A stretch of 64,000 nt of DNA. It comes from a virus (Duplodnaviria > Heunggongvirae > Uroviricota > Caudoviricetes). The position numbers and the translations under genes are program-made. How positions within the stretch are numbered: the first letter of the stretch is position 1; every line of letters begins with the position of its first letter. Below are positions 28,176-59,923 of this stretch, in pieces. The notes under the pieces were generated by a model. That model saw nothing but the letters and a program-made list of their open reading frames with translations. It had not been told where the DNA came from and did not search any database. The stretch is taken from IMG/VR virus record IMGVR_UViG_2877982868_000014; one strand, written 5' to 3'.

Positions 28176-28601
28176 TCAGAAAAGTGGCGGTTGTGTTCTT
28201 GCCAGATGCAGACGGCGCTGTTCACGTATGACGGTATAAATCTGGGTTTCTGACATCCGGTAATGGCGGCGAAGGGATTCAATTTTCTCGCCCCGGTCCC
28301 AGCGCGAAAATATCTCATTGTTTCGCAGCTCGGCAAAGAGAGATTCCCCGACCGGCAGGTAATAACCCCGTCCGCCCATATAGGCTGCCTGAGCCGCAGC
28401 CACCTTGCGTGCCAGTTTGCCGGCCAGTACCGGCTCAATCCCCTGACGCTGAAGTTCTGCGCCGGTGACTTCAACCAGTTCTGACAGGGTCCGCGGCCAG
28501 TTCTTTTTGAGAACATCATCAGGGATGTCATCAAGGCGGTCGATAAGGGCGTGCAGTTGCTCACTGTCACCACCAAACATGCTCATCTGAGTTTCTGCCA
28601 T
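28176..28601 (-). CDS. Mor/C-family transcription activator
   Basis: 141 aa; C-terminal ...TQIYTVIREQRRLHLARTQ resembles Mor/C DNA-binding end; between gemA and lys. Confidence 0.75.
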   Translation of the reverse strand: MAETQMSMFGGDSEQLHALIDRLDDIPDDVLKKNWPRTLSELVEVTGAELQRQGIEPVLAGKLARKVAAAQAAYMGGRGYYLPVGESLFAELRNNEIFSRWDRGEKIESLRRHYRMSETQIYTVIREQRRLHLARTQPPLF

Positions 28602-28670
28602 ATCAGCCTCCGGTTCTCGCGTTCCCGGTAAGTTTAAAATAAAAATCCCGCGTTGTGGCGGGATTTGGGG

Positions 28671-29180
28671 TTAACGGGGAAGTGATTTTTCATACTGCCT
28701 GCAAACGGCGTCATACCCCATCAGCGTGCGTTCGGGCATTCCCATCGCGGCCAGCATTTTGCGGCGGTGCCATCGCTTGAGACGCTCCAGCACATCTGAG
28801 GCCAGGGCGGGGTGTTGCTCCAGCCACTGCCAGTTTGCCACACCTTCGCCGCCGTTTTGCGCGGCCGTCTGCGATTTCACCCAGCGGTTAAGGGCGGTTT
28901 CCGCACCATCAGAGATAAAGCCCTGCCGGTGCATCACCTTCCAGATGGCGCGAATTTTAGCGGTCACCGTACCCGGTTTTAAGGCCCGGTTAACCGGGTT
29001 CTGACGCACTTTAAAACCGCGTTTTTTGAAAACATCCAGCACGCGGGATAACTCATCCGGTGACATATCCCGGCAGCTGGTTTTGCCGGTGACCGCCAGT
29101 AGTACGGATGTGTAGGTTTCATCATCCAGGGCAAGCTCGCGTTTTGCCACATGAATGGCAGATATCAGTTTCCCTCTCAT
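28671..29180 (-). CDS. GemA-like regulatory protein (Mu gp16 family)
   Basis: 169 aa upstream of Mor/C as in Mu. Confidence 0.6.
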   Translation of the reverse strand: MRGKLISAIHVAKRELALDDETYTSVLLAVTGKTSCRDMSPDELSRVLDVFKKRGFKVRQNPVNRALKPGTVTAKIRAIWKVMHRQGFISDGAETALNRWVKSQTAAQNGGEGVANWQWLEQHPALASDVLERLKRWHRRKMLAAMGMPERTLMGYDAVCRQYEKSLPR

Positions 29181-30000: not shown

Positions 30001-30369
30001 TTAATCAGTTTCCAGTGCTTTGCTACGGGCAACAGCCTCACACTCAAAAAATACCGACTCCGGCACACGCTCCTTTAATTCACGAACAAGAAAATCATTA
30101 ACGAGTTCATGACGTCTTATATTTCTTTCCTTTTCCTCCTGGCGCAATACAGCAAGGCGGTATTCAACAGTCCGGCGTTGTTTCTGAAAGACAGCCAGTG
30201 CTTTTCTGGCAGAGTTACGCAATGTATCATCGCCACAGGGTTCGTATTCAAGCTGAAATTTAATCTCTTCAATGGTTTCTTTTATTTTTGCCAGCAAGCT
30301 AAGACAGTCGCTGATTGTCTTCAGTTTTTCATTATCAATATAACTTCTCACGCATTCACCTCCCGTCAT
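30001..30369 (-). CDS. Hypothetical charged helical protein (122 aa)
   Basis: Start MTGGECV overlaps upstream stop (ATGA). Confidence 0.5.
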   Translation of the reverse strand: MTGGECVRSYIDNEKLKTISDCLSLLAKIKETIEEIKFQLEYEPCGDDTLRNSARKALAVFQKQRRTVEYRLAVLRQEEKERNIRRHELVNDFLVRELKERVPESVFFECEAVARSKALETD

Positions 30370-30677
30370 TCCGGTAAAGCTGAAATATGGCACCAGTGCG
30401 TCACCTGTCCGTCCTCATCTTCAAGGCAGGCTCCGGTTTCTTCATCAATAAAAAAGCCTTCATACCCCATATGGCCGATGCGCAGTTCCTGTTGGTCACC
30501 ATACTGAACAATCAGCACGACAGCCTCCATATCAGGCGGGAAAGCATCATTCAGTGAATGCCAGGGATAACCGCGCAAATCCCCGAAATAAACACCGGTC
30601 AGCGTTCCGCCACAGACCGGCATTCCGACGGCACACACAAGGGGTTCATCTGATTCAACAAATAATGTCGTTATCAT
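30366..30677 (-). CDS. Strongly acidic small protein (103 aa), DNA-mimic candidate
   Basis: 18 Asp/Glu vs 2 Arg/Lys; ATGA coupling on both sides. Confidence 0.5.
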   Translation of the reverse strand: MITTLFVESDEPLVCAVGMPVCGGTLTGVYFGDLRGYPWHSLNDAFPPDMEAVVLIVQYGDQQELRIGHMGYEGFFIDEETGACLEDEDGQVTHWCHISALPE

Positions 30678-31225
30678 GGCATTAATTCCCGTAATACAAC
30701 ATCTTCGGCAGTCCGACGACGGTGATAAATAAAACTCACCGTGCCCTCGGATAATTCAAATTTCTCGCCGATTTCCCTAAAGGTAAGACGCCGTGGTGAT
30801 TCAGCATCCCGTAATTCACGAATAAGATGAACATCATCGTCAGGTATGCGGGTAAAAGGCAGTAATTCTCCGTATTTTTTCATGCTTACGCCAATATATC
30901 GCGCCCGATTGTGGACAGAATCCCGGTCTCGCCCCAGATATTCTCCTATTTGCTTACCGGTCATCGTCCTGGCATTTTTTCGGATAAATTTATCTTCATC
31001 AGGTTTAAATCTGAGGCGTTTGCATTTGAGCAACTCCGGGTAAGTACCGCGTAATAAAACAATCCGGTTATGTACACCCCAGAAACTTCTTTTTATCCTG
31101 ACAGCAATATCCTTAACCGGGGTGGATGGATAAAGCGCAATCAGCAGCGCATCTTCTTCAGGTGTCCATGCGCGAACATGAGCGGGTGCACGGCCTTTTC
31201 TCCCCATGGGTTGTAATTTCATCAT
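30674..31225 (-). CDS. Putative DNA-binding protein with Myb/SANT-like and HTH motifs (183 aa)
   Basis: WTPEEDALLIALY...WGVHNRI (Myb-like); LTFREIGEKFELSEGTVSFIY (HTH). Confidence 0.5.
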   Translation of the reverse strand: MMKLQPMGRKGRAPAHVRAWTPEEDALLIALYPSTPVKDIAVRIKRSFWGVHNRIVLLRGTYPELLKCKRLRFKPDEDKFIRKNARTMTGKQIGEYLGRDRDSVHNRARYIGVSMKKYGELLPFTRIPDDDVHLIRELRDAESPRRLTFREIGEKFELSEGTVSFIYHRRRTAEDVVLRELMP

Positions 31226-31228
31226 GCA

Positions 31229-31744
31229 TCACCCCCCGACTCGCTTTTCGGCAGCATAAAACTCATCAGACAGAATTTCGGTCATTTTCCGTTTTGCGGA
31301 ATCATCTTCGCACTGAAGGTAAATAACATCGTCAACGCAGAACCACTTCACGGGACCATGCAATATTGCTGAGAAGTCAATACCCAGCCAGAACAACAGT
31401 GCATCGGTTCTGGCATACGTGACGGGCGAATATTCACGCCACAGACTGTTAAGTTCGTCAGAGGCAACGCGCAGGGCTTTGGGAATACGTGATGTGCGCG
31501 GTGTGCAGCTCCAGCCATTCGACGCAGTCGGTTTTCGCCATAAGTCGCGATGAAAAGGATATTTGTCATCCATAAAGCGCAGCCCTTTAAAACAAAAGCC
31601 ACTGATACCGGATACAAATACCGACCGGCACGCAACATTCAGCACGGCCTCAAGGCGTTTTGCCTCATCCTTAACTTTCTGGCAGTCCTGCTGATATTTT
31701 TGCCACGCGGCCAGCGCGGAAGGGTTTGATGTTTTAAAGAACAT
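31229..31744 (-). CDS. Hypothetical protein (171 aa)
   Basis: ORF in early operon, 3-nt spacing to next gene. Confidence 0.5.
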   Translation of the reverse strand: MFFKTSNPSALAAWQKYQQDCQKVKDEAKRLEAVLNVACRSVFVSGISGFCFKGLRFMDDKYPFHRDLWRKPTASNGWSCTPRTSRIPKALRVASDELNSLWREYSPVTYARTDALLFWLGIDFSAILHGPVKWFCVDDVIYLQCEDDSAKRKMTEILSDEFYAAEKRVGG

Positions 31745-32277
31745 TACGCCACCTCCGCAGATATCCCGGCAGGTGCAGCCGTCCGGTCAACAATCAGGTA
31801 ACGCAGAACATGTTCGGTGATATTCCAGCCGCTTAAACCGCAGATAATGACACCCAGGCGAATGTCGATATACGCCATCACAAACTGGGGCACGCCTTCT
31901 TTCATGGCCTGCTCATCAACTTCAACCACCACATAAACGGTTTCGCAGGTCAGTACGCCCTGAGCAAATTCCCACGCCATCGACGGAATATCATGCCCCT
32001 CAATCCACGGCAGGGATTTTCTGAAGCTGCACCACTGAACATCATCAGCCGCACCTTCCTGGCTGCATTTGCGACGAACCGGCTGCACCGGGCGGGGACG
32101 CGGAATATCATAAAAACCGTTACATTCCGTCAGCACCCCGGCATCGACCGCATCACGCAAAAAATAAACCATCGAGGATGGCGGCATATTCATTTTTTCA
32201 GCCAGAATGCCGCAGGTCAGACGCCCGTAAATACTCAGCCAGTTTTTAACCCCTTCAAGCACTTTTGCATCAATCAT
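31744..32277 (-). CDS. Hypothetical protein (177 aa)
   Basis: ORF in early operon. Confidence 0.5.
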   Translation of the reverse strand: MIDAKVLEGVKNWLSIYGRLTCGILAEKMNMPPSSMVYFLRDAVDAGVLTECNGFYDIPRPRPVQPVRRKCSQEGAADDVQWCSFRKSLPWIEGHDIPSMAWEFAQGVLTCETVYVVVEVDEQAMKEGVPQFVMAYIDIRLGVIICGLSGWNITEHVLRYLIVDRTAAPAGISAEVA

Positions 32278-32920: not shown

Positions 32921-33451
32921 TTATTTATTCAGTCCGGCGTCCTGTTCAAAAGGCTCGACATAAAAACTTTCAGCGCCTTTATTCACCTTAATACCGGCAA
33001 TGCCTTTCACTGCATCCGGCTCCGCTAGGACCGCTTCCTTGTTCACTTCCTCTTTCGTGCGGATGAATCGCTCAAGCCCCATACGGCGCAGCATTTCAAT
33101 CACACCTTCCACATCACGGCTGACGCTGCATGATGGATTTCCCAGCCGCCATGACACTGTTCCGGTGGTCAGATTGGCTGTTTTGGTTTTGCCGCCGTTC
33201 GTCAGCTCATCGCGGTTGGTTTTGCACCAGTCCTGAATCCCCTTAAAAAGCACTTTGATTTCTTTTTTAAGGTTTTCAATCTGCGGCGTATAACGGGCGG
33301 TGATTTCTGCCACTTCATCATTCATCGCCGTTTCCAGCCGTAGCGCCTCTCGCTGAATATCGCCCAGGGTACGGATATCGCGGCTGACTTCTTCGCGGGT
33401 CTGCGGTGCAGCCTCGGCTGCGGCCTTTAATTTTGTAACACGTTTAGCCAT
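32921..33451 (-). CDS. gam: Gam host-nuclease inhibitor (Mu Gam family)
   Basis: 176 aa; ...DELTNGGKTKTANLTTGTVSWR...RFIRTKEEVNKEAVL... closely matches Mu Gam. Confidence 0.9.
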   Translation of the reverse strand: MAKRVTKLKAAAEAAPQTREEVSRDIRTLGDIQREALRLETAMNDEVAEITARYTPQIENLKKEIKVLFKGIQDWCKTNRDELTNGGKTKTANLTTGTVSWRLGNPSCSVSRDVEGVIEMLRRMGLERFIRTKEEVNKEAVLAEPDAVKGIAGIKVNKGAESFYVEPFEQDAGLNK

Positions 33452-34579: not shown

Positions 34580-34807
34580 TTAGCTGACTTGTTTCGCACC
34601 AACAGAACGGCATATTCCGCTGTAAACGTCTGTCGCACCTTCGCGATCAAGTCCGGCAGATATCACCATTCGTGTGCGGTCATTAAATTCAAAAAGAAAA
34701 TCGCCACATTCTTTATTTTCGGCCAGTGAAATCACCTTCACGTTATCGAAATTAACCAGGTAAAAGCGTCCGTAAATATCAGGAATATTAAATACCGCCA
34801 TAATCAC
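34580..34807 (-). CDS. Hypothetical early protein (75 aa)
   Basis: Overlaps B stop. Confidence 0.4.
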   Translation of the reverse strand: MIMAVFNIPDIYGRFYLVNFDNVKVISLAENKECGDFLFEFNDRTRMVISAGLDREGATDVYSGICRSVGAKQVS

Positions 34808-35736
34808 ACCTGTGAGAGTAATTCAGGGTTGGTATAAACCTCTTTAAAGGCCGCATTAATATGTTTTTCTGTCAGCGCCGCGCCTTCACCGCTGGCGGTG
34901 AGCCACGCCTGGTTAAGCGTATGTGTCAGAACGCGTAACGCTCCCGGCTTTTCAGCGATAGCCTGCATGACGGCCAGCTCGGCCTCACCACTGATCCCCC
35001 ACGCCCTGGCAATGGCCAGCACATCCGCCTTTTTGGCCTTGCGAAGTTGTTTTGTACGGGCAAGACGGCTGAACAGGCGCGATAAATCATCAAAGGCGCG
35101 GCGTCCACCTTTAAACAATCCGCGCGGGTTACCAATAAGCACCATCCCGATCCCCGTGGCGTCCTGAATTGCCCGGAGTTGCTCCAGACCGTCAATACCA
35201 AGATGATCCGCCTCATCCACAATCACCAGTCCACGCGTTCCCATCAGGCGACGGCGGATGGCGCGGGATAATGCCCCTTTGTTCGCGCGGGTGTAATCAA
35301 TCCCCAGCGCATCGGCCAGCTCCAGCAGACACTCCGTGACGCTGGAGTGCGCGGGTGACAGGGTGATCATCCAGGTGTTTGGTTGCTCCTGGCAGTAATT
35401 ACGGGCAGTGGCCGTTTTACCCACACCCGGTACGCCCACAATAACGTTAATACAGCCCATCAGACGAACCGCCTGAAACAGTGCGCGCAGCTCCTGGACT
35501 GTCTGCGTTTCCACAAACTGCGGCGGTTCCGGCAGTGCGCTTTGTTTATTCCAGTTCTCATACCAGGAACGCAGGGAAGCAGCCACAGCAGCGTTATCGC
35601 CTTTATATTTTCCCTTACGGAAAGCCGATAATGTGCCGTCGGAAATTCCCGCCTCTCTGGCGATGGCATACTGCGTCAGTACGCCGCCATCAATAAGTTC
35701 ATCAATGGTCTTGATTACATCGTTAATATCAGTCAT
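34804..35736 (-). CDS. Transposition target-DNA activator B (MuB-like AAA+ ATPase)
   Basis: 310 aa; N-terminal HTH, Walker A GVPGVGKT, Walker B LVIVDEAD. Confidence 0.9.
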   Translation of the reverse strand: MTDINDVIKTIDELIDGGVLTQYAIAREAGISDGTLSAFRKGKYKGDNAAVAASLRSWYENWNKQSALPEPPQFVETQTVQELRALFQAVRLMGCINVIVGVPGVGKTATARNYCQEQPNTWMITLSPAHSSVTECLLELADALGIDYTRANKGALSRAIRRRLMGTRGLVIVDEADHLGIDGLEQLRAIQDATGIGMVLIGNPRGLFKGGRRAFDDLSRLFSRLARTKQLRKAKKADVLAIARAWGISGEAELAVMQAIAEKPGALRVLTHTLNQAWLTASGEGAALTEKHINAAFKEVYTNPELLSQV

Positions 35737-35807: not shown

Positions 35808-37898
35808 TCAGGCCAGCGGGTCATTTTCTTTTAATTTCGCTTCCAGCAACTGCAATCCCCGCTGGAAATTACGCTCGTATTCTTCATCAGGTTCATCGTC
35901 AGCGACCGGTTGCTGAACGGTCACCGTATTACCCACAGGGCGGTATATGTTTTCCAGCCAGGGCTCCTGCGGCTTGTGCTCCAGCACGTTGACAACCTCA
36001 TCCTCGGCATCACGGATTTTTTCCTCTGCGCGTTTACGCATGCCTTTAAGGCGTTGCTGCTGTTTGTAGTATTCCGCGCTAACCGGGAAGGCTTCGCGTT
36101 TATTACCGTCCCATACCGCCTCGCAAATCACGCTGCCATCCAGGCGACGTACGGTAATTCGTTCGGCATCATGAATGTCATAGCTGATAAGCACCTTACG
36201 ACCATGCTCGTCACGCAGCTCGGGCGCGTAGTAAATATTATTCAGCCAGCGTATTTCACAGCGTCTTACAGGGCGTTCCACCATCGGCCGGAACATATCC
36301 CGCAGCTCAACATCGGACAGCCATTCAATTTCCGTGTCCTCTTCCGCCAGGCGTTTTTTTCTGAACTCCGCCGGGCTGTAATGCTTGCCGTTCGGCTTCA
36401 CCGGTAATTCATCGTGCGGCCGGTTGTTGTACCACTCAACACCGTCACGAATGGCATCAATCAGTTCAGACCAGGACGGTAAATCACGCATCGCTGACTG
36501 CTGCCGGGCGTTCAGCCGTTTGCCCTGTTGCAGGGCAGTAAATGCCGAGCGTAAATCGCGGTTGGTTTTGCGTAACGTCTCGCGATCTGCACCTTTCCCG
36601 AAATAGGTGCGGTATTTACGGGCTATGCGCATCGGTAATGTGCGGTTAAGCCGTTCGATAATGCCTCGTCCCTGCGGATTACCGGCAATCCCGGTCGGGT
36701 GATTAATCCCCAGTCGCGGCAGTATCCCCACAACCTCCTTATCCAGGATGTCGGCGGTTTCCCCGGAGCCGTTATCCGAGTAATACAGAAACGGTTTGCC
36801 GTGATGGCGAATGCCGTGCTGTATGGCACCGGCTACGGCGAAAACATTTTCAGCCAGGTCAAGGCTCCAGCCCACCACAAAGCGCGTGCCACCGTCGATA
36901 ACAAAGGTCACTTCCGGTGCAAATGGCCGACCGTGAACCGGGTGTGCGCATTTCAGCTTCATGCCGTGACCGTCACCAATCCAGACATAATTCACCGGCA
37001 TTCTGGACCAGTCGCGGCGCGTGAATCCCTCAAGCTGGCGGTATTCACTGCCGGTCACCCGGCCTTTTTGTTTCACCACTTCCGGCAGTTTCTTCATTGC
37101 GCGGCGAATGGTGTCATAAGACGGCATGATATCGAGCATATAAGGCTCATCAGCGTGCCGGTGCTGCCATTCAGCGACAAAATCCTCGTAAGCCTCGGTC
37201 ATTGGTCGGCCGTTTGACTGGCGATACTGCGCCAGAAATTCGGGCAGCCAGTTAATATCTTCGGCTTTTATTTCCTGGCGCTTACCCGGTGCCAGTAAAA
37301 GCAGGCGTTCAGCGGCGTTCTGCGCCTTGTTAAAGGCCGCAATCCAGCGTTTCAGCGTTATTTCACTCAACGCACGGCTGTTTCCCTTTTTGGCGTTCGC
37401 CGTCTCAACCATTGCCACAATGCGCTCGTCCAGTTGCGAACGTGCCAGGTTGTCAACGATAAACCGGATAGCTTTCGCACAGCTGAAACCGGGTTGTTGC
37501 GCGACTTTCATCACTTCGCTGACGATCGCAATTCGTGCATCAGCCACCTGGCGCTGGTTTTCAGTCAGGGCATTAAGGCGTTCAACCATCAGTTGTGGTG
37601 ATCCGCGATATGCCTCCACCGCATCAACCACGGCAGGCGAGCGTCTGGCCTTTGTCACCACCGGAGCCGGTGATTCATCAGCTTTTTGCGTCATCAGTTG
37701 AAGGGCATAACGTTCACGCAATACTTGTTGCGCGCCAGAAGGCAAACAATCGATATTAAATTCGATTGCTTTTGTCCCCTTACGTTTGCGTAACATGGCT
37801 GCATTTCCCGCAGCTGCTTTTGTGAGTCGATGGCGAATGTTATGTTCCATCATTGGTAAATCAGGAAGACCAACACATTCTTTTGCTGTTACCCACAT
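35808..37898 (-). CDS. DDE transposase A (MuA-like)
   Basis: 696 aa; MWVTAKECVGLPDLP N-terminus like MuA; between ner and B. Confidence 0.9.
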   Translation of the reverse strand: MWVTAKECVGLPDLPMMEHNIRHRLTKAAAGNAAMLRKRKGTKAIEFNIDCLPSGAQQVLRERYALQLMTQKADESPAPVVTKARRSPAVVDAVEAYRGSPQLMVERLNALTENQRQVADARIAIVSEVMKVAQQPGFSCAKAIRFIVDNLARSQLDERIVAMVETANAKKGNSRALSEITLKRWIAAFNKAQNAAERLLLLAPGKRQEIKAEDINWLPEFLAQYRQSNGRPMTEAYEDFVAEWQHRHADEPYMLDIMPSYDTIRRAMKKLPEVVKQKGRVTGSEYRQLEGFTRRDWSRMPVNYVWIGDGHGMKLKCAHPVHGRPFAPEVTFVIDGGTRFVVGWSLDLAENVFAVAGAIQHGIRHHGKPFLYYSDNGSGETADILDKEVVGILPRLGINHPTGIAGNPQGRGIIERLNRTLPMRIARKYRTYFGKGADRETLRKTNRDLRSAFTALQQGKRLNARQQSAMRDLPSWSELIDAIRDGVEWYNNRPHDELPVKPNGKHYSPAEFRKKRLAEEDTEIEWLSDVELRDMFRPMVERPVRRCEIRWLNNIYYAPELRDEHGRKVLISYDIHDAERITVRRLDGSVICEAVWDGNKREAFPVSAEYYKQQQRLKGMRKRAEEKIRDAEDEVVNVLEHKPQEPWLENIYRPVGNTVTVQQPVADDEPDEEYERNFQRGLQLLEAKLKENDPLA

Positions 37899-38175: not shown

Positions 38176-38331
38176 TGTGTGATCCTCTCATGTTTACCTG
38201 AACCGATAATCAAAACCGGTTATCGATTTAGGTAAATCATAATCGCAAAATAATTCGATATCAACGGTTTTTTGCGAGCATATCGAAATTAAATGCGATG
38301 TCGATAATTTCTTTGTTTTATAGGGGGTTAT
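38176..38331. promoter_or_regulatory. Divergent early/repressor promoter-operator region with TATCGA-type repeats
   Basis: Repeats CCGATAATC, TTATCGATTT, AATTCGATATC, ATATCGAAAT, GTCGATAATT between ner and c. Confidence 0.5.
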
Positions 38332-51201: not shown

Positions 51202-54200
51202 TCAGCTAATCGTGATGCCTGCAGTGGCTTTCTTCATCACCACAACCAGCAAATCGCTGATACTTGCTGTGGGATACCAGTTATTTACCAGCCATGCTGA
51301 CACCGAAAACTCCAGTGTCATGTGACCGTGACCGGCAGGCATATCAATAACACCACTGTAAATCAGCGTATTATCCAGCGCGGTACGGTTATAAATTTCA
51401 GCACCGTTTTTCCGCACTATCAGACGGCATGAGGAGTAAATATCAGTATGCTCTTTCTCATGTTTAGCGCCGCTGAATGCCACCGCCGGAATAACAATCT
51501 GCCGGTCAAACGGCTGATCGTCATAAACCCTGACGGTAATGGTTCCTGATGGCCACCGCTCCGGTGCACGGGAGTCCCGGGGGAAAGCTTTGCCCACTGT
51601 TTTAACGAGATCGCCTTCAATCTGGTTCGCGGACAATTTTCCCAGAACCCGACAGTTCTCGTTAATCGTGACGTTGTTGAGCGTCCCGGAGTTCGCATTC
51701 ACGTTACCGCTGATATCGGCATTTTTCGCCGTCAGCCGCCCGTCCGGTGTCAGGGAAAATGCCGGAGGATTACCGCCGCTGGTAATGGTGGGAGCCGTCA
51801 GATATTTCAGGAACACTTCATTCATAAATATCTGATCGCCCTGACCAACAAACATCGGCTTTGTGTTGCCATTCGCAGGATTAATCATCGCAATCCTGTC
51901 TGCCGCCAGCAGCACCTGACTCTGCATTCCTGCTGGCGTATTCTCAATACCGGCACCGATACCCGCAATATAAAGGCGTCCGTCCTGCATCTGCTGCAGT
52001 TTCACGGCCCACATGCTGTTCAGGTTATTATTTGTATCAACCTGAACTTTCTGTATCTGCTGGATTGCCGCACTCTGATTTTCCAGTTTTTTATTGACGG
52101 TCTGCGTGATTTCATTGCTGACATTCGTAATGGACGTCCTGATTTCAGCCAGGTCCGGCGCAAGCTGACCGTTATCAATCTGCGTCCACAGCTCCTGGGC
52201 CAGATGTGTTTTCCCGATTTCTCCTTTGAAAAAATCCAGGTAACCTTCCGCATCATCGCTCGCCCGACCGACAGCCTCCACGAATGCCGATTTGCCAACA
52301 GTATTCACACTGCGGATATAAAAATAATAATCATGGCCCGGTTTGATATTGATACTGGCAGCTATCCAGTACAGCGCCGAGCCAAGATAGCGGGCTGCGG
52401 TTTCAACCTGCCTGATATCCGCAATCCGCTTTTCCGAGAACCAGAACTCAAACTGTACCGTCGGGTCATAAACGGCAAGATGCGGCGTGGCGGTTATCTG
52501 AAAATAGCCCGGCGTCAGCTCAATCCGCGACGGTGCTGCCGGTGCGGCAATCCGGAAGGTGGTGGTGGCAGGTTCACCCTGCTGGCCATAGCTGTTTATC
52601 GCCCGCACCGTCAGGGTGTATTCCCCGAGCGGCAGGCCGCTGAAACGGTGCTCCGTGTCTGCGGTGATGGCGGTGGTCACCAGTCTGGCATCCGTTCCCT
52701 TACCACTGGTCAGGCGCAGACTGAAGCGCACGCCCTTCACCACCCGCGGCGTGTCCCATTTAGCCTGCGCCAGATACTGGCCGTCAGCTGCACTCACCTC
52801 CACCGTCAGGTGCTGTACTGCCGGTGGGATGACGCTGTTCAGGGAACCTGACTGCGGCTCAAAGCGGGCACCGTTATCCACGATGGCTTCTTTTTCCGGT
52901 ACGTGCTGCACCGCCGTGATGGCAAAGGTGCCGTCCGTGTTTTCCCGGACGGAGACACAGCGGAACAGGCGACGGCACAGTGACGGCAGGGAGAGTCCCC
53001 ACACCCCGTATGTCTCCACACCATCAGGCAGGGTACTGACCTGTATCCGGTCCGGCGCGGGGTGTGCGGTGATGTCCACACTCACCGGCTTACCGCTGCC
53101 GTTAATCAGGTTCACCGTGGCGGCACCGGTCTCCGGCAGTGTCACCTCACGGTCCAGCGTCAGGGTGCGGCTGGCGGCATCGATGGACAGGACACGTCCG
53201 CCGGTCATGGTCCCGGCATAGTCGTTATCACAGATTTCAATAATGTCACCGGGTGTGTGACGCAGCCCCTGTGACCCAAGCGTGAAATCCACCGTCTGCG
53301 TTTCCAGCAGTCCGGTCTTTATCACCCACAGCCCGGCACGGTGGGCCTGACCGCGACTGGTGCAGCCGAACGCATCCATCTTCAGCAGGTTGCGTCCGTA
53401 GCGCAGTATGGCTTCCGGGTCTTCCACCAGTTCCGTGGAGGTCTGCCAGCCGTTCTGCGGGTCGGTGTAATTCACCTCCACCGCCGTGTGGCGGTCCTTC
53501 AGGGCGCTGAAGCTGTAGCGAAACCCCACGCCGTTATCATCCACCACCACATCACTGTTGGTGTACGGCCACACCACATCCGACGGACTGTCCTGAACGA
53601 ACGTCAGCGTCTGGCCGTTCCATACCGGCATACAGCGCATCGCCGAGCAGAAATCACTGAGAACGTCCCACGCCTTACGCTGTTGTGACAGGTACGCATT
53701 AAAGGTCATCCGCGGCTCTGTGCCCCCGAAACCATCAGGGACCATCTGGTCGCAGTACTGCGCAATGGCATACAGCGCCCACTTGTCCACATCCGCCGCC
53801 CCCAGGCGTTTTCCCATGCCGTAGCGCGGGTGAGTCAGCATGTCCCACAGGCACCAGGCCGGGTTGTTGCTGTATGCCGGTTTCAGGCTGCCGTCCCAGA
53901 TGCCGCTGTACGTGCGTTTTTCCGGGTCATAGTTTGACGGCACCTGGATGATGCGACCGCGGATATGGTAGTTCACCGTCATCTGCTGACCGCCAAACTG
54001 CTCCGCATCCACCTGCAGCCCCACAATGGCCGTGTTCGGGTAGCACTGTTTCACATCGATGATTTCGGTGTATGACGACCACAGCGTTCTGTTCTGCAGC
54101 TGGTCCGTGGTGCTGTCCGCCGTCTCCCTGACCATCCGGATGTTAAAGGGCCGGGGCGGCAGATTATCCAGAATCACCGACGCCAGGAACTGCGAGGTGG

Positions 54201-54726
54201 TCTTGCCGTTAATGGTGACATCCTTTTCCGTCACCCAGTTACCGTTACGCTGCAACTGAATCAGCAGTCGGACAGAAGAGTGATTACGGTCGCCCTTTGA
54301 GGTGGTCTCCAACAGTGACTGCACCCCGAAGGTGACCCGCAGGCGGTCAATGTTCGCGGACGTAATGGTGCGCGTCACCGGCTTTGCCTTCGTCACTTCC
54401 ACGCCCAGTGCGGTTTCAGCTCCGGAGGACTCAAAGCCTTCCGGTGGTGTCTGCTCCTGCTCCCCGGCACGCCAGACCGCAGTCACACCGTGTATCACGG
54501 GATTACCGTCCGTGTCCGTCAGCGGGGTTTTGTTCACCAGAATACTCTGCAGCCCCTTCACCGGACCTTCAATCGGCCCTTCACCAATGGCGTCAATCAC
54601 GCTCATCATCTGCGTGGACTTAAGATTGTCCTTTGCCTCTACCGGCGTGTGCCCCTTGCCGCCCCCTTTACCCACTCTGTCCCCCTCTCCTGTCTGATGT
54701 CTGAATCTGTTTATGCCAGAAAACAA
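51202..54726 (-). CDS. Host-specificity tail tip protein J
   Basis: 1174 aa following I/K/L/M as in lambda. Confidence 0.9.
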
Positions 54727-54915
54727 CAGGCACCCCGGAGGGTGCCTGTGTCATGACGGAATAAAATTTCTGAAACTCTTCACATTTCCGGCAATTGCCT
54801 GTAGCCGCAATAATGACGCTGCATTACTTTTTTGATGCCTGAAAAATAACTCCATAACGTTAATCTTCATCGTTCTCTCCCGCAGCTCCGCTAACTCTGC
54901 GGGATTTTTTTATTT

Positions 54916-55593
54916 TCATCCCCGCCCGATAACCACCACTTTCCCGTCTCCGCCCTCATCACGGGTGCTGATGTCCTGGGATATCCGTCGTGAACCAACC
55001 AGCATTTCACCATAAGGCACCGGCATCGGGTTCCCCTGGGCAATCATGTTATCCAGTGACGAAAAATACGTGTTCTGTTTACCGTTATCCGTCGCCCTGT
55101 ACTCCGGTGTTTTTGCCTTCGGTGCCAGCATCTGGGCCACACCGCCCAGTATCATGCTGGCACCCAGTGAGAACAGCATCGTGGTGGCAGTCAGCCCTCC
55201 GGCACTCAGGGCTGCGCCCCACAACGCCATCGTTGCGCCGGCGGTGAAGAAAGAGCCCACGATGGCTGCCGCCCCCAGCACAATCTGCAGTCCACCCTTT
55301 CCGGCTCCGGCCAGTCGCGGCACAATATGGATGACCGCCCCCTCACCCAGAGGTTCGTGAAGACGGGCGTACACCGCCTCCGGTGCCGTGTCCTCACCGC
55401 GAATACGTATCTGGTACCAGCCTTCGTTCATCTGACGGCGGAATCCCGGCATCTGCAGCGACAGGGCACGGATGGCTTCCGCTGCCGTGTTCACGTACAG
55501 GCTGAGGCGGCGGCCAAATCGTTGCAAATCCCCGTGAAGGCAGATGCGTGCCAGTGGCGGTGACGCCAGACAGAATGCGTTCGTCGTTGCCAT
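54916..55593 (-). CDS. Tail assembly protein I
   Basis: MATTNAFCLASPPLARICLHGDLQRFGRR... matches lambda I N-terminus. Confidence 0.85.
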   Translation of the reverse strand: MATTNAFCLASPPLARICLHGDLQRFGRRLSLYVNTAAEAIRALSLQMPGFRRQMNEGWYQIRIRGEDTAPEAVYARLHEPLGEGAVIHIVPRLAGAGKGGLQIVLGAAAIVGSFFTAGATMALWGAALSAGGLTATTMLFSLGASMILGGVAQMLAPKAKTPEYRATDNGKQNTYFSSLDNMIAQGNPMPVPYGEMLVGSRRISQDISTRDEGGDGKVVVIGRG

Positions 55594-56237
55594 TTTTCAG
55601 AATACCTCTCCCGTTTACTCAGTTGTTCAGGCAGATGGTGAAGCAGTTCACCGTTGCCGCAGTATATGGCGGCATGATTGGCCACCGATGCGCCAAAGCA
55701 GCACAGCAGGATATCGCCCGCCTGTGCAGAGGACAGGGGCACCCGGTAAAAACCAGTCGCCGCCATATTGTCCAGGTAAAGGTTCTGACCGTTGCGCCAC
55801 CAGTCATCCTCACGCTCAAAATCCGGCAGCGTTATCCCCGCCAGATGGTATGCATCCCGGAACAGGGTGTAACAGTCCGTCACCCCGTGCTCAAAACGAC
55901 GCCCGGTCAGGTGCGGCACACAGCGGAATTTGTGAATTTCCCCCCGGCAGACCAGCCACCAGGGCAGGGCACTCTTTATCTGCAGCCGCCGGTCGGCCTC
56001 GCTCAGCCAGGGCAGACCACCAGGGTGGCTGTGAACCAGCGCCACAATCTCCCCCTGCATCTCTGCCTGCAGCCAGTCTTCCGGCGCAATACGAAAATAC
56101 GCCTCCGGCTCTGCGGAGATATTCACGCAGGGCTGGTACCGTTCGCCCTCCGGGGTGCCTATCACGAAGCCGCACGACTCCGCAGGCGCACACCGCCGGG
56201 CATGCACCAGAATCGCTGATTCAGTCTGTGTCATAAA
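55491..56237 (-). CDS. Tail assembly protein K (JAB/NlpC-P60-like)
   Basis: ...HARRCAPAESCGFV...HSHPGG... matches lambda K; overlaps I as in lambda. Confidence 0.8.
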   Translation of the reverse strand, partial: FMTQTESAILVHARRCAPAESCGFVIGTPEGERYQPCVNISAEPEAYFRIAPEDWLQAEMQGEIVALVHSHPGGLPWLSEADRRLQIKSALPWWLVCRGEIHKFRCVPHLTGRRFEHGVTDCYTLFRDAYHLAGITLPDFEREDDWWRNGQNLYLDNMAATGFYRVPLSSAQAGDILLCCFGASVANHAAIYCGNGELLHHLPEQLSKRERYSEKWQRRTHSVWRHRHWHASAFTGICNDLAAASACT

Positions 56238-56244
56238 ACAGGAT

Positions 56245-56943
56245 TTACTGCGAAAGTTTATTGATGGAAAGGAAACCGCCAAAATTAGCCACCATGCCGC
56301 GCATCTCACACCCGCGCATGCATTTACTGCATCTGTCCTTCCGGATATCCGTGGTGGGGTTGTCGAACTCATCCGCCACTGCCGGACCGTTATACCCGCA
56401 TTCATCGCCCCGGTAATCCCACATACAGGTGTTCGCCAGCATGATGCGACCGGGAAACAGCGCCCCGTCCGTCTCCGTCGGTGTCGCCAGCACAAACGAG
56501 GCCGTCATGGCCGTCAGCGATGACATCTGCTCCACCACCCACCGGTCCGTCAGCTCCTGCTCAGGGTCTGCCTCAGGATTGCCTGCCACAAAATTCACCG
56601 CATCCAGAAAACGGGCATACACCCGGCGGCGGACCACCGTGGCCCCCACCAGGCTCTGCAGGTCCTCCGCCATCCCGGTGACCAGACCAAACAGATTCGA
56701 CACCGTCAGCGACGGTCTGGCACTGCTGCCCTTCCCGTTCATCTCAAAGCCACTGCCGTCAATCGGGTATGCCTGATATTGCCGCCCCTGCCAGGTAACC
56801 GCCTCCCCTTTTTCATTCAGCTCATTGCAGAAAAAATACCGCTCACCGCCCTGCGCCGTCAGGTCGATTTCCCAGAGTACCACCCGCGGTGACTGCTCTG
56901 ATTTAACCGACTCGTTCAGACTTTCTTCGTGAATATCCTGCAT
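56245..56943 (-). CDS. Minor tail protein L
   Basis: MQDIHEESLNE...GFLSINKLSQ matches lambda L. Confidence 0.9.
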   Translation of the reverse strand: MQDIHEESLNESVKSEQSPRVVLWEIDLTAQGGERYFFCNELNEKGEAVTWQGRQYQAYPIDGSGFEMNGKGSSARPSLTVSNLFGLVTGMAEDLQSLVGATVVRRRVYARFLDAVNFVAGNPEADPEQELTDRWVVEQMSSLTAMTASFVLATPTETDGALFPGRIMLANTCMWDYRGDECGYNGPAVADEFDNPTTDIRKDRCSKCMRGCEMRGMVANFGGFLSINKLSQ

Positions 56944-57272
56944 CAGTTCACCACCTGCTTAAACTCCGCGCTGAACTCAACGCGCAACATCCCGACCCGC
57001 GCAGACCACCCGGCACAGGTCACCTTTATCTGCCGGTATGCATAGGGTGGCTTCCACAAAAATGCCTTCCAGCCTCCGTGCTCTGCCAGGAACGCTTCCA
57101 GATGCCGGGCCTCCTCCCGGGTCACGGAAAGCGTCACACGGTATGTTTTCAGGTCAGCATTCAGCCCTGCCGCCATACGCTGTGAGTACCCGTCACCAAA
57201 ACGCACTTCACGCACCGATGGCTGCGAGTTCACCTCCATATCCGGCTTCACTTTCCAGCGAAAGGTTTTCAT
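56943..57272 (-). CDS. Minor tail protein M
   Basis: MKTFRWKVKPDMEV...SAEFKQVVN matches lambda M. Confidence 0.9.
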   Translation of the reverse strand: MKTFRWKVKPDMEVNSQPSVREVRFGDGYSQRMAAGLNADLKTYRVTLSVTREEARHLEAFLAEHGGWKAFLWKPPYAYRQIKVTCAGWSARVGMLRVEFSAEFKQVVN

Positions 57273-59923
57273 CGCCCGCTCCCCGATAACATACCGCCAT
57301 CACGCAACTGCAGCCGGAGCTCATCCTGCGCCCCCTTGCGGGCCATGTCATACACCGCCTTCATCAGCTGCGGCCCCGCCTGTCCGTTGGTGCCGTCGTT
57401 CTGAATCACCACGTGATTGTTCTGATTAAAATTAATACCTTCCGCCCGCCGCATCTGCGCCGGACTTCCGGCACCACCCACATAACCACCTTCCGCATAG
57501 CCGCGCATCAGACGGTAAAGATTCCCCACACCTATCCGGCTGGTTGCCTCTTTCGTGAAAACAAACTCCCCGCGGTGAACTATCCCCGCAGGCTCATATT
57601 TGCCGCCCGTCCCCGTAAATCCTCCGGTCGCGAAATGGAAGTTCGCCGCCGCAGCCTGAATGGCCGTCCCCGAGGAAGCAGATGCACCACCACCGAAAGC
57701 ACCGCCAATGGCGCTGCCGATACGCCCGACAATGCCCACCATGGCCTGTTTAAGCAGGATTTCTGTCATCATGGACAGCACCGAACGGGTGAATCCCCGC
57801 CAGTCTGCCTCTGCACCGGTCAGCATCGCCGCCATATTCTGTGCAATACCGTCAAAGGTCTGCGTGGCAGCACTTTTAACCTGCGAAAAACTGTCCGTCG
57901 CACTTTCCGCCCACTCGCCCCAGCCGGACTTCAGCCCGGCCATCCAGCTTCCACGAAGCTGCTCCTCCGCAGACCTGGTGTTCTTCAGTGCCGATGTGGC
58001 CTTCGCCAGCGCAGCCGGATTATCACCGTACACGTCCCGAAGACGCTGCGCTTCAGACTCCCGCTGCGCCTGACGGTCAGTGAGACCGCGGGCTTTTGCG
58101 CTGATGGCGGCCTGCTTCGCGCTCTGCTGCTCTTCAAACCGCACCGCCTGCTGTGCCAGCTCATTCAGGCGTTTCTGGTATTCAACCTTGTCGCCCAGCT
58201 CAGCCAGCTGGCGTTTGTACTCCAGCGTCTCGTCTTTATGCGCCAGCAGGGATTTTTCCTGCTCAGATAACTGTCGTTTCGTGGCAGCCTCTTTCAGGAC
58301 CGCATACTGACTTTCCGCCTTCCATAAATCACGGCGCTGCCGGCTGATTTTCTCATTCGCACCGCTGTGTTTTTCCAGCGTCCTGAGCTCAGCTTCAAGG
58401 GCAAGCAGAGCCTCTCTTGCCTGCTCCTCTTCCCTCTCCCCGGCAGAGCGCGTTTTCGGTGATGTATGCTTTTTACCTGTCAGCTCTTCAGCCAGACGGC
58501 TGACGGCTTCCTGCTGCCCCGGACCTTTGCTGACGCCTGTTGCACGCGAACGGTTGATGTACCCCATTTCCCCCTGGCGTATACGCGCATCCCGTTCCGC
58601 AATGGATTTTCTCAGCGCCAGTTCATCACGTTTTGTTTTCTCAATAAATACGCGGTTCTCTTCTGCCAGTTCACCAAACAACGCACCAACGCCGGGCACA
58701 TTCTTTGTCGTTTCCCAGGCTGACTGAATAAATTCAGCCAGCGCCAGATCCCCCTGCACAAGCAGCAGCTTCACCTGTTCAACGGTTCCTGCCACCACGT
58801 CAGTGATCAGACTGAGTGCCCCCAGTGTATGATCACCTATCCATGCCCATGCGTCAGAAGTCCAGGTTTTAACATCGTCCCAGATTTTTTCCACCGGCGT
58901 GGCCGCTTTATCAAGTTGCTCCAGACGTGCATTCATGACATCCGCAAACAGGGACATCGCCTCCGTCACCGCAGCCTGTTTACCTTTCGTGCGCTCAAGC
59001 TCATCAATATGGCGTAACTGGGAAACGCTCAGGAAGTTATACTGCTGATTCAGGGAGGCCAGCGCCTTCACCGGATCTGCTGCAATCCCTTCAAAGGCTT
59101 TTTCCACCTTCCCGGCATCGTCCCCCACCGTCTGCAGCCATCTCTGAGAGGTTTCCCCCATGATCCGTAGCTGCCCGGCGGTATATTTCCCGCTTTCTGC
59201 CAGACGGGCCAGATTTTCTGCCGCCTGTCTGATACCACCACCGGCTTCATCGCTGATCACCCCGGCCATTTTCCACAATTCTGCCGTTGTGGTGGCAGCA
59301 GCCCCTCCGGTCAGGGTCAGTGAACGCAATAAGGCCCGGTCAGCCTGCTCTGCCTGCCAGGCGGCGGCAGCAAGCGCGGCCAGTACGGCAACCCCGCCAC
59401 CTGCCGCCACACGGGCCACCGACATAAATCGTCCCAGCTCACCGGCATTCCGGGCATTTTCAGCCAGTGCATTTGCCGTATCTGACAGCGACTCCTCTGA
59501 TGATTCAGAGGCATCCCTGATCCCGAGAAGTTCCTCCTTCAGCAGGGTAAGCAGGCTGAGCGGTCCACCGAATGAATCGCTGATCTGCCCCCCCTGCTGC
59601 AGCATGATAAGGAAGGGATTCTGACCACCGGCAAGCTGAGTGACAATATCCGTGAACTGTGCGGGCAGTGTGCGCATGGCAGCCTTATACTGTCCGACTG
59701 ATATCCCGGCTTTTTGTGCAGCCAGCGCCTGTCGGCTCAGACTCTGCTCAGCAGCATCAGCCTGTTTTCTGAAAGACTGACTGACTTTCCCGGACATCAA
59801 ATCAGCAAGCGCACTGGTTTCACCCAGCTCTTTTTTTACCCGCGCTGCCTCTTCAGAAAAACGGGCAGAATCCAGTGTCAGCACGGCTGTCAGATCGGCA
59901 AAATTACCTGCCATCGTGGTCAC
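57269..59923 (-). CDS. Tail tape measure protein H
   Basis: 884 aa between G/T and M. Confidence 0.9.
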   Translation of the reverse strand: MTTMAGNFADLTAVLTLDSARFSEEAARVKKELGETSALADLMSGKVSQSFRKQADAAEQSLSRQALAAQKAGISVGQYKAAMRTLPAQFTDIVTQLAGGQNPFLIMLQQGGQISDSFGGPLSLLTLLKEELLGIRDASESSEESLSDTANALAENARNAGELGRFMSVARVAAGGGVAVLAALAAAAWQAEQADRALLRSLTLTGGAAATTTAELWKMAGVISDEAGGGIRQAAENLARLAESGKYTAGQLRIMGETSQRWLQTVGDDAGKVEKAFEGIAADPVKALASLNQQYNFLSVSQLRHIDELERTKGKQAAVTEAMSLFADVMNARLEQLDKAATPVEKIWDDVKTWTSDAWAWIGDHTLGALSLITDVVAGTVEQVKLLLVQGDLALAEFIQSAWETTKNVPGVGALFGELAEENRVFIEKTKRDELALRKSIAERDARIRQGEMGYINRSRATGVSKGPGQQEAVSRLAEELTGKKHTSPKTRSAGEREEEQAREALLALEAELRTLEKHSGANEKISRQRRDLWKAESQYAVLKEAATKRQLSEQEKSLLAHKDETLEYKRQLAELGDKVEYQKRLNELAQQAVRFEEQQSAKQAAISAKARGLTDRQAQRESEAQRLRDVYGDNPAALAKATSALKNTRSAEEQLRGSWMAGLKSGWGEWAESATDSFSQVKSAATQTFDGIAQNMAAMLTGAEADWRGFTRSVLSMMTEILLKQAMVGIVGRIGSAIGGAFGGGASASSGTAIQAAAANFHFATGGFTGTGGKYEPAGIVHRGEFVFTKEATSRIGVGNLYRLMRGYAEGGYVGGAGSPAQMRRAEGINFNQNNHVVIQNDGTNGQAGPQLMKAVYDMARKGAQDELRLQLRDGGMLSGSGR

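Follow-up and report, generated by a model that had tools for sequence, protein, structure and literature searches.

A predicted triple helix-turn-helix DNA-binding protein encoded by an accessory early-operon cassette of a Mu-like prophage

The 64,000-nucleotide stretch of IMG/VR virus record IMGVR_UViG_2877982868_000014 (Duplodnaviria; Heunggongvirae; Uroviricota; Caudoviricetes) that was analysed here, referred to below as the window, contains an Sp18-type Mu-like prophage, and midway in the approximately 10-kb early operon of this prophage lies a gene for a 183-aa protein composed of three helix-turn-helix (HTH) domains. This HTH gene is an accessory single-gene cassette common to Mu-like and P2-like prophages. 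On balance its product is probably a regulator of phage DNA transactions that binds double-stranded DNA (dsDNA) and is encoded by a cassette of the early operon, rather than by a member of the fixed three-gene module that a preliminary description of the region had proposed.

The gene and its product

The gene occupies the following position:

30674..31225, minus strand: gene for a 183-aa triple-HTH (T5 D5-like/Mu gp9-like) putative DNA-binding protein; open reading frame (ORF) with an ATG start, supported by PHROG 323, an AlphaFold2 (AF2) model, the hhalign alignment to T5 D5, and the ratio of nonsynonymous to synonymous substitution rates (dN/dS)

The match to PHROG 323, the 32 close homologues of the protein from E. 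coli, Salmonella and Citrobacter, and a dN/dS of 0.22-0.25 against diverged alleles, which points to purifying selection, show that this is a genuine conserved gene. The ORF and the peptides quoted for it in the preliminary description (WTPEEDALLIALY, WGVHNRI and LTFREIGEKFELSEGTVSFIY) are all present in the translation, and the ORF is not a piece of a larger known gene, an outcome that the description had named as counting against it. The encoded protein is basic, with a pI of 10.1 and 38 lysine and arginine residues versus 25 aspartate and glutamate residues.

The AF2 model, made from a 22-sequence alignment, has a mean predicted local distance difference test score (pLDDT) of 84 and consists of three bundles of three helices each and a short C-terminal helix (aa 173-181), which together cover the whole chain. 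The three repeats are:

31046..31177, minus strand: HTH repeat 1, aa 17-60 (WTPEEDALLIALY...WGVHNRIVLLR), helices 22-31, 37-43 and 48-59; sub-threshold Pfam Myb match on aa 19-31
30890..31018, minus strand: HTH repeat 2, aa 70-112 (FKPDEDKFIRKN...DSVHNRARYIG), helices 75-84, 90-97 and 101-110; sub-threshold HTH_11 and HTH_23 matches
30713..30853, minus strand: HTH repeat 3, aa 125-171 (DDDVHLIRELRD...LTFREIGEKFELSEGTVSFIYHRR), helices 129-140, 149-156 and 160-169; Sigma70_r4 match near the cut-off

Profile-profile comparison with hhalign relates repeat 1 to repeat 2 with a probability of 98%, and repeat 2 to repeat 3 with a probability of 69.5% (E 4e-5). Within each repeat the third, or recognition, helix has the highest mean column entropy (1.74, 1.91 and 2.09 in repeats 1, 2 and 3, respectively), and the scaffold helices are conserved, with entropy down to 0.23 in the nearly invariant helix 2 of repeat 3. 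Variable recognition helices on a conserved scaffold are the pattern expected if relatives read different DNA sequences.

The Myb/SANT-like multi-HTH character given in the preliminary description is borne out by the three three-helix domains of the model, with the Pfam Myb, Sigma70_r4 and HTH matches lying just below threshold. Both domain types anticipated there were matched, each under its gathering threshold: Myb with 16.6 bits versus 24.4 on repeat 1 (PF00249), the second Myb model (PF13921) with 16.1 versus 22.9, and Sigma70_r4 on repeat 3 with 23.5 bits versus 24.1. Repeat 2 scored under the cut-offs of 25 and 24.6 bits for HTH_11 and HTH_23, respectively. The NCBIfam scan gave nothing above cut-off, the TIGR02937 match scoring 18.6 bits versus 42.9, and the sequence search of PDB gave no significant match (best E 0.23). 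The three-helix fold superposes on Myb repeats and fits the GcrA-type DNA-binding-domain fold as well; in the structural ranking the GcrA DNA-binding domain was the best match, followed by the Tc3 and Myb/SANT domains.

As in eukaryotic Myb R1R2R3 and SANT proteins, the three-helix repeats stand in tandem about 54 residues apart, and the motif W-[ST]-x-E-E-D at the start of helix 1 is common to both. However, Myb repeats carry three signature tryptophans each, of which the HTH protein keeps the first only; this residue, W20 of repeat 1, is invariant in the family, and repeats 2 and 3 lack a conserved tryptophan. Myb/SANT proteins are eukaryotic, whereas the present protein is of prokaryotic, phage origin. 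Some of its homologues exceed the Pfam Myb threshold that the window protein itself does not reach.

In most databases the protein is named “AsnC family protein”, elsewhere it is “hypothetical”, and this widespread misannotation is corrected here. The HTH_AsnC-type match reaches 20.1 bits versus a cut-off of 27, the RAM/AsnC_trans_reg ligand domain is not matched, and the model consists of all-helical HTH repeats; the name is thus a misnomer.

The Sigma70_r4 match of repeat 3, just short of its cut-off, and the weak match to TIGR02937 would suit a factor for the takeover of host transcription, one that binds RNA polymerase as a mimic or appropriator of sigma-70 region 4, instead of DNA or in addition to it. 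The best whole-chain Foldseek matches of the model in PDB are also sigma factors, and T5 D5 is toxic if expressed alone (PMC13405049). However, the Foldseek matches to sigma factors are non-significant, region-4-like matches are generic to the HTH class, and the sigma-70 family test found region 4 below threshold and region 2 absent. Such a role is considered very unlikely.

Family and nearest known systems

The protein matches PHROG 323 (“transcriptional regulator, D5-like”) with E 2.3e-58 and 199 bits, its residues 2-182 aligning with profile positions 80-256, while T5 D5 and Mu gp9 match the same profile with E 1.2e-71 and 5e-29, respectively. On these profile matches it is assigned to a catalogued, poorly characterised phage family, which ties an early gene of Sp18-type Mu-like prophages in pathogenic E. 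coli to two other phage proteins, Mu gp9 and T5 D5, the latter of which has been studied biochemically.

In T5 D5 (T5.118, 255 aa), residues 72-232 are collinear with residues 18-170 of the HTH protein, so that all three repeats are covered (hhalign probability 96.7%, E 4e-10, 28% identity). Both are early-expressed phage proteins that lack an enzymatic domain. According to its GenBank note, D5 is a DNA-binding protein on which both DNA replication and late transcription depend, and it takes part in the shut-off of earlier genes; dsDNA binding and a role in these processes are known for D5 only (GenBank note; PMC13405049, PMC12630848). In a 2026 preprint AlphaFold3 predicted that D5 uses its HTH to bind msdDNA from a type IX retron, and D5 was found to remodel the retron-Kva2 complex in vitro, thereby triggering the retron (PMC13405049). 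The settings of the two genes differ, since D5 is an essential gene located in the replication gene cluster of a virulent phage, whereas the HTH gene is an accessory gene of a temperate transposable prophage and is missing in some relatives.

Mu gp9 (E8, Mup09, 99 aa) aligns to repeats 2 and 3 with 32% identity (E 7e-10) and, like the HTH gene, is located in the semi-essential early region. It has two repeats versus three in the HTH protein, and its gene lies immediately upstream of gam, whereas the HTH gene follows gp12. Mu has no homologue at the position of the HTH gene itself, its gp12 being followed by the unrelated gp13/gp14.

Many phage proteins in BFVD have the same tandem arrangement, with 18 matches at E<=1e-3, several of them from phage Goslar, and an exhaustive profile search with the HTH family returned 14,063 proteins at E<=1e-3. 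These include proteins of 300-870 aa from bacteria and metagenomes (P0033, P0034, P0038, P0042 and others) that contain 4-10 tandem copies of the repeat; in P0034 the array is fused to an SF2 helicase, and one of the array proteins comes from a Propionibacteriaceae metagenome-assembled genome. Gene 109 of Mycobacterium phage Bombitas (L084:1004-2431), annotated as a DNA methyltransferase, contains an internal pair resembling repeats 1 and 2 (35% identity), and in related mycobacteriophages of the cluster the gene at the same tblastn match encodes an HNH endonuclease or a methylase.

Position in the early operon

The prophage region shares 99% identity with a prophage of E. coli O157 and other Shiga toxin-producing E. 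coli (STEC) genomes; among 5,426 complete E. coli genomes it is present in 232. Inserted copies of the region carry the label “Bacteriophage Mu-like phage” in Stx-phage records. On the minus strand, the Mu transposase gene is followed by genes for a MuB-like ATPase, small early proteins, Gam, a 180-aa ORF, the gp11-like and gp12-like proteins and the HTH protein; after it come the 103-aa and 122-aa ORFs, three small ORFs, GemA, a Mor/C-family gene and lysozyme. The main features are:

38332-38943, plus strand: CI-type repressor
38236..38264, minus strand: promoter-like site with 10/12 matches beside the repressor gene (promoter scan)
35808-37898, minus strand: Mu transposase
34804-35736, minus strand: MuB-like ATPase
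32921-33451, minus strand: Gam
31744..32277, minus strand: Mu gp11-like gene (Pfam Gp11_C, E 3.5e-40)
31229..31744, minus strand: Mu gp12-like gene (PHROG 2314; PF26885 Phage_Mu_Gp12 in homologous loci; 53% identity to Mu gp12)
30366..30677, minus strand: acidic 103-aa ORF, pI 4.05, in ATGA overlap with the HTH stop (PHROG 6925, unknown function)
30001..30369, minus strand: third ORF; a start at the ATG at 30369 gives 122 aa, the RefSeq start at the GTG at 30351 gives 116 aa (PHROG 6158, unknown function)
28671-29180, minus strand: GemA
28643..28666, minus strand: terminator-like hairpin after GemA (terminator scan)

The ATG of the HTH gene is located 3 nt past the stop of the gp12-like gene, which itself shares one base with the gp11-like gene. 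The sole strong promoter-like site is that at 38264-38236, the first good terminator-like hairpin is that at 28666-28643, and the promoter and terminator scans revealed no such site near the HTH gene. The former is likely to be the early promoter for the whole operon, including the HTH gene, and the latter is likely to mark the end of the operon. Owing to the tight upstream packing and the distant promoter and terminator, the HTH gene cannot be said to head a unit, as had been supposed, but lies inside the early operon, which consists of about 18 tightly packed genes.

The coupling to the two ORFs downstream was correctly noted in the preliminary description, as the overlaps are real (ATGA between the HTH and 103-aa genes, and the 103-aa stop with the ATG at 30369), but it does not set these genes apart, the coupling to the gp12-like gene upstream being equally tight. 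The third ORF could start at either of two codons, the GTG at 30351, favoured by RefSeq and the PHROG profile, or the ATG at 30369. In the window the 103-aa ORF ends in LPE and a stop that overlaps the next ATG (30366-30369), and its homologues are 5-10 residues longer.

The prophage contains a single Mor/C-family gene (28176-28601, minus strand), which has 39% identity to Mu C (E 4e-35) and 27% to Mu Mor (E 3e-14). It lies directly upstream of the lysozyme gene, as does Mu C, and is preceded by the hairpin at 28643-28666, right after GemA; no Mor orthologue is found at the end of the early operon of this prophage. Because the only Mor-family gene is C-like and located behind the terminator, the HTH protein was considered as a Mor substitute that activates middle genes, an idea weakened by a Salmonella prophage (L083) with the same GemA-Mor-lysozyme layout and no HTH gene.

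Gene content of related prophages

The loci classified comprised 65 from IMG/VR and 12 fetched by exact protein look-up, among which 42 Mu-like loci were informative. Since a scan of GTDB representative genomes gave a single locus, the context statistics are based on the IMG/VR loci, which are not independent of one another and derive mostly from isolates of E. coli and Salmonella. Three arrangements were found in the Mu-like loci:

HTH, 103-aa and 122-aa genes, as in the window: 14/42
HTH and 103-aa genes only, without the 122-aa gene: 16/42
HTH gene followed directly by a 111-aa gene, without the 103-aa gene: 12/42

The 103-aa gene therefore follows the HTH gene in 30 of the 42 loci, and the 122-aa gene is present in only 14. 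In the Salmonella Mu-like prophage L083 (L083:3483-4342) the 103-aa gene stands directly after gp12, and the HTH gene is found nowhere in 8.3 kb. In another, L082 (L082:2962-4342), a P2-type HTH allele replaces gp12, and a dATP/dGTP pyrophosphohydrolase-like gene (PF04447) lies right after the 103-aa gene. As relatives without it exist, the HTH gene is an accessory one.

Full-length homologues with 41-48% identity are located immediately upstream of replication gene A in 20 P2-like IMG/VR loci, which have neither of the small ORFs. Wherever upstream sequence is available (19/19 P2-like loci), a gene for a D12-class Dam methylase lies within about 1.5 kb upstream of the homologue. The Dam - HTH - replication protein A layout recurs in P2-like prophages (L002-L005, L010-L012 and L060-L079), including Salmonella and Citrobacter loci, the order in L012 being HTH-Dam-gpA instead. 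In Citrobacter phage phiSM (Peduoviridae) the homologue is also upstream of the replication endonuclease gene, and Dam is not annotated.

In E. coli a 72%-identical HTH allele is found within flanks that are 94-97% identical, with a dS of 0.77 versus 0.13-0.23 in the flanks and a dN/dS of 0.22. Diversifying selection on the HTH gene was rejected as the cause; the high dS and low dN/dS indicate an old allele moved by recombination, that is, gene-sized replacement rather than fast protein evolution. The 103-aa gene stays 94-96% identical across this swap, and the two genes thus do not co-evolve.

These comparisons bear on the proposal that the HTH gene belongs to a three-gene (or two-gene) module for takeover or anti-defence, in which the basic HTH protein would be joined by the acidic 103-aa protein as a partner, antagonist or DNA mimic and by the 122-aa protein as an effector. 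It is consistent with the ATGA coupling across all three ORFs, the opposite charges of the first two products (pI 10.1 vs 4.05) and the frequent succession of the HTH and 103-aa genes. However, the full set occurs in a third of the Mu-like loci only, the HTH and 103-aa genes are each found without the other (in 12 of these loci and in L083, respectively), the P2-like loci contain neither partner, the HTH allele is swapped beside an unchanged 103-aa gene, and the coupling extends equally to the gene upstream. Nor did either of the two small “effectors” of the preliminary description yield a domain or defence-related match; they belong to no Pfam or NCBIfam family and fall only in PHROGs of unknown function. 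The 103-aa family is narrow, being limited to E. coli and Salmonella, and the AF2 model of this protein, all-beta and with a pLDDT of 51, is unreliable and of too low quality for a fold search. In related prophages each of the three genes assorts independently, the 103-aa ORF being an independent cassette and the third ORF a variable one; the three-gene module is largely refuted by the comparison of gene content, and in any of its forms it is highly improbable.

The presence and absence of the HTH gene, its allele replacement and its occurrence in both Mu-like and P2-like prophages could also suggest a selfish element, namely a DNA-binding module left over from a mobile gene for a nuclease or methylase, a homing-endonuclease-type HTH array orphaned from its catalytic domain and with little function for the phage. 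Weak PHROG matches to HNH endonuclease families (phrog_1891, 8446 and 6156) and the tblastn matches under mycobacteriophage HNH endonuclease or methylase genes point in the same direction. Such an origin is highly unlikely given that the gene is under purifying selection (dN/dS 0.22), that the full-length three-repeat architecture is kept in alleles down to 37% identity, that the position in the operon is stable, and that no nuclease remnant is present nearby.

The association with Dam raises the possibility of a GcrA-like methylation reader, whose HTH domains would recognise Dam-methylated or hemimethylated sites and link phage replication or transcription to the state of methylation; P2-like phages would use a Dam of their own for this, and Mu-like phages that of the host. 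Besides the constant neighbourhood of Dam upstream and gene A downstream in the P2-like loci (with HTH-Dam-gpA in L012), this would agree with the rank of the GcrA DNA-binding domain as top structural match, with the match of multi-repeat homologues to Pfam GcrA at about 1e-9, and with the repeat pair inside a mycobacteriophage DNA methyltransferase. The HTH protein itself, however, does not match Pfam GcrA (PF07750) at E<=1, and its identity to the DNA-binding domain of Caulobacter GcrA (PDB 5yiu) is 17%. GcrA has one DNA-binding domain and a C-terminal sigma-70-interacting domain, whereas the HTH protein has three such repeats and no interacting domain. A Dam gene was not seen in the examined parts of the Mu-like early region and is not annotated in phiSM, and synteny within one lineage is weak evidence of functional linkage. 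This function is regarded as unlikely. A broader version, according to which the triple-HTH cassette, moving between Mu-like and P2-like prophages, acts at the interface of phage defence and epigenetics, either as a reader of the Dam state that times replication or transcription or as a D5-like protein sensed by msDNA-based retrons, would explain the gene-sized allele replacement and the presence/absence polymorphism, but is likewise very improbable.

Proposed function

The HTH protein very probably binds dsDNA. As a regulator of phage DNA transactions it would be a small, basic, non-enzymatic dsDNA binder whose three tandem tri-helical domains belong to the Myb/GcrA/homeodomain-like class. 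The gene would be transcribed inside the early (Pe-type) operon, and the protein would consequently be made only after induction or infection. Its three recognition helices may read successive major-groove sites on a target of about 25-35 bp, and occupancy of the DNA could then modulate phage, and possibly host, transcription and/or the timing of replication, as D5 does. A replication role would fit the location of the homologue beside the replication initiator gene of P2-like phages.

Several observations weigh against this function. In the model the geometry between domains is uncertain, with a predicted template modelling score (pTM) of 0.52, and whole-chain Foldseek against PDB found nothing significant (E > 0.05, template modelling score, TM, about 0.2). 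The Pfam matches are all under gathering thresholds. The link to D5 function is one of remote homology at 28% identity; the N-terminal segment of about 70 residues of D5 is absent from the HTH protein, in which 16 residues precede repeat 1, and D5 is essential in T5 whereas the HTH gene is dispensable in relatives, L083 lacking it. Scans for promoters, terminators and tandem repeats produced no candidate binding site for the protein, and searches of the literature covering Sp18, Mu gp9 and the early region turned up no functional data on the HTH gene or Mu gp9.

The practical value of the finding is modest; it lies in the corrected annotation, in the link from Sp18-type prophages to Mu gp9 and T5 D5, and in the recognition of the HTH gene as a stand-alone cassette that Mu-like and P2-like prophages share. 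Should D5-like proteins generally trigger type IX retrons, the PHROG 323 family would be a candidate for this part in temperate phages.

Other features of the window

A perfect 11-bp tandem repeat (TTTGAAGATGT, 2.7 copies) is located at 39087-39116, between the end of the repressor gene and the host DNA, and probably represents transposase end-binding sites at the left end of the prophage. The segments at 39532-47770 and 51202-59923, beyond the Mu-like prophage, contain host genes and the tail region of a second prophage. The host genes include those for VWA CoxE-like and SWIM-domain proteins and a LytS-type histidine kinase; the second prophage is lambdoid, and its tail genes encode a J-like tip attachment protein and a tape measure protein. 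Strain FORC_044 carries the same prophage next to ndh, so that its flank is not the one seen here; different flanks are expected if Mu-type insertion is random.
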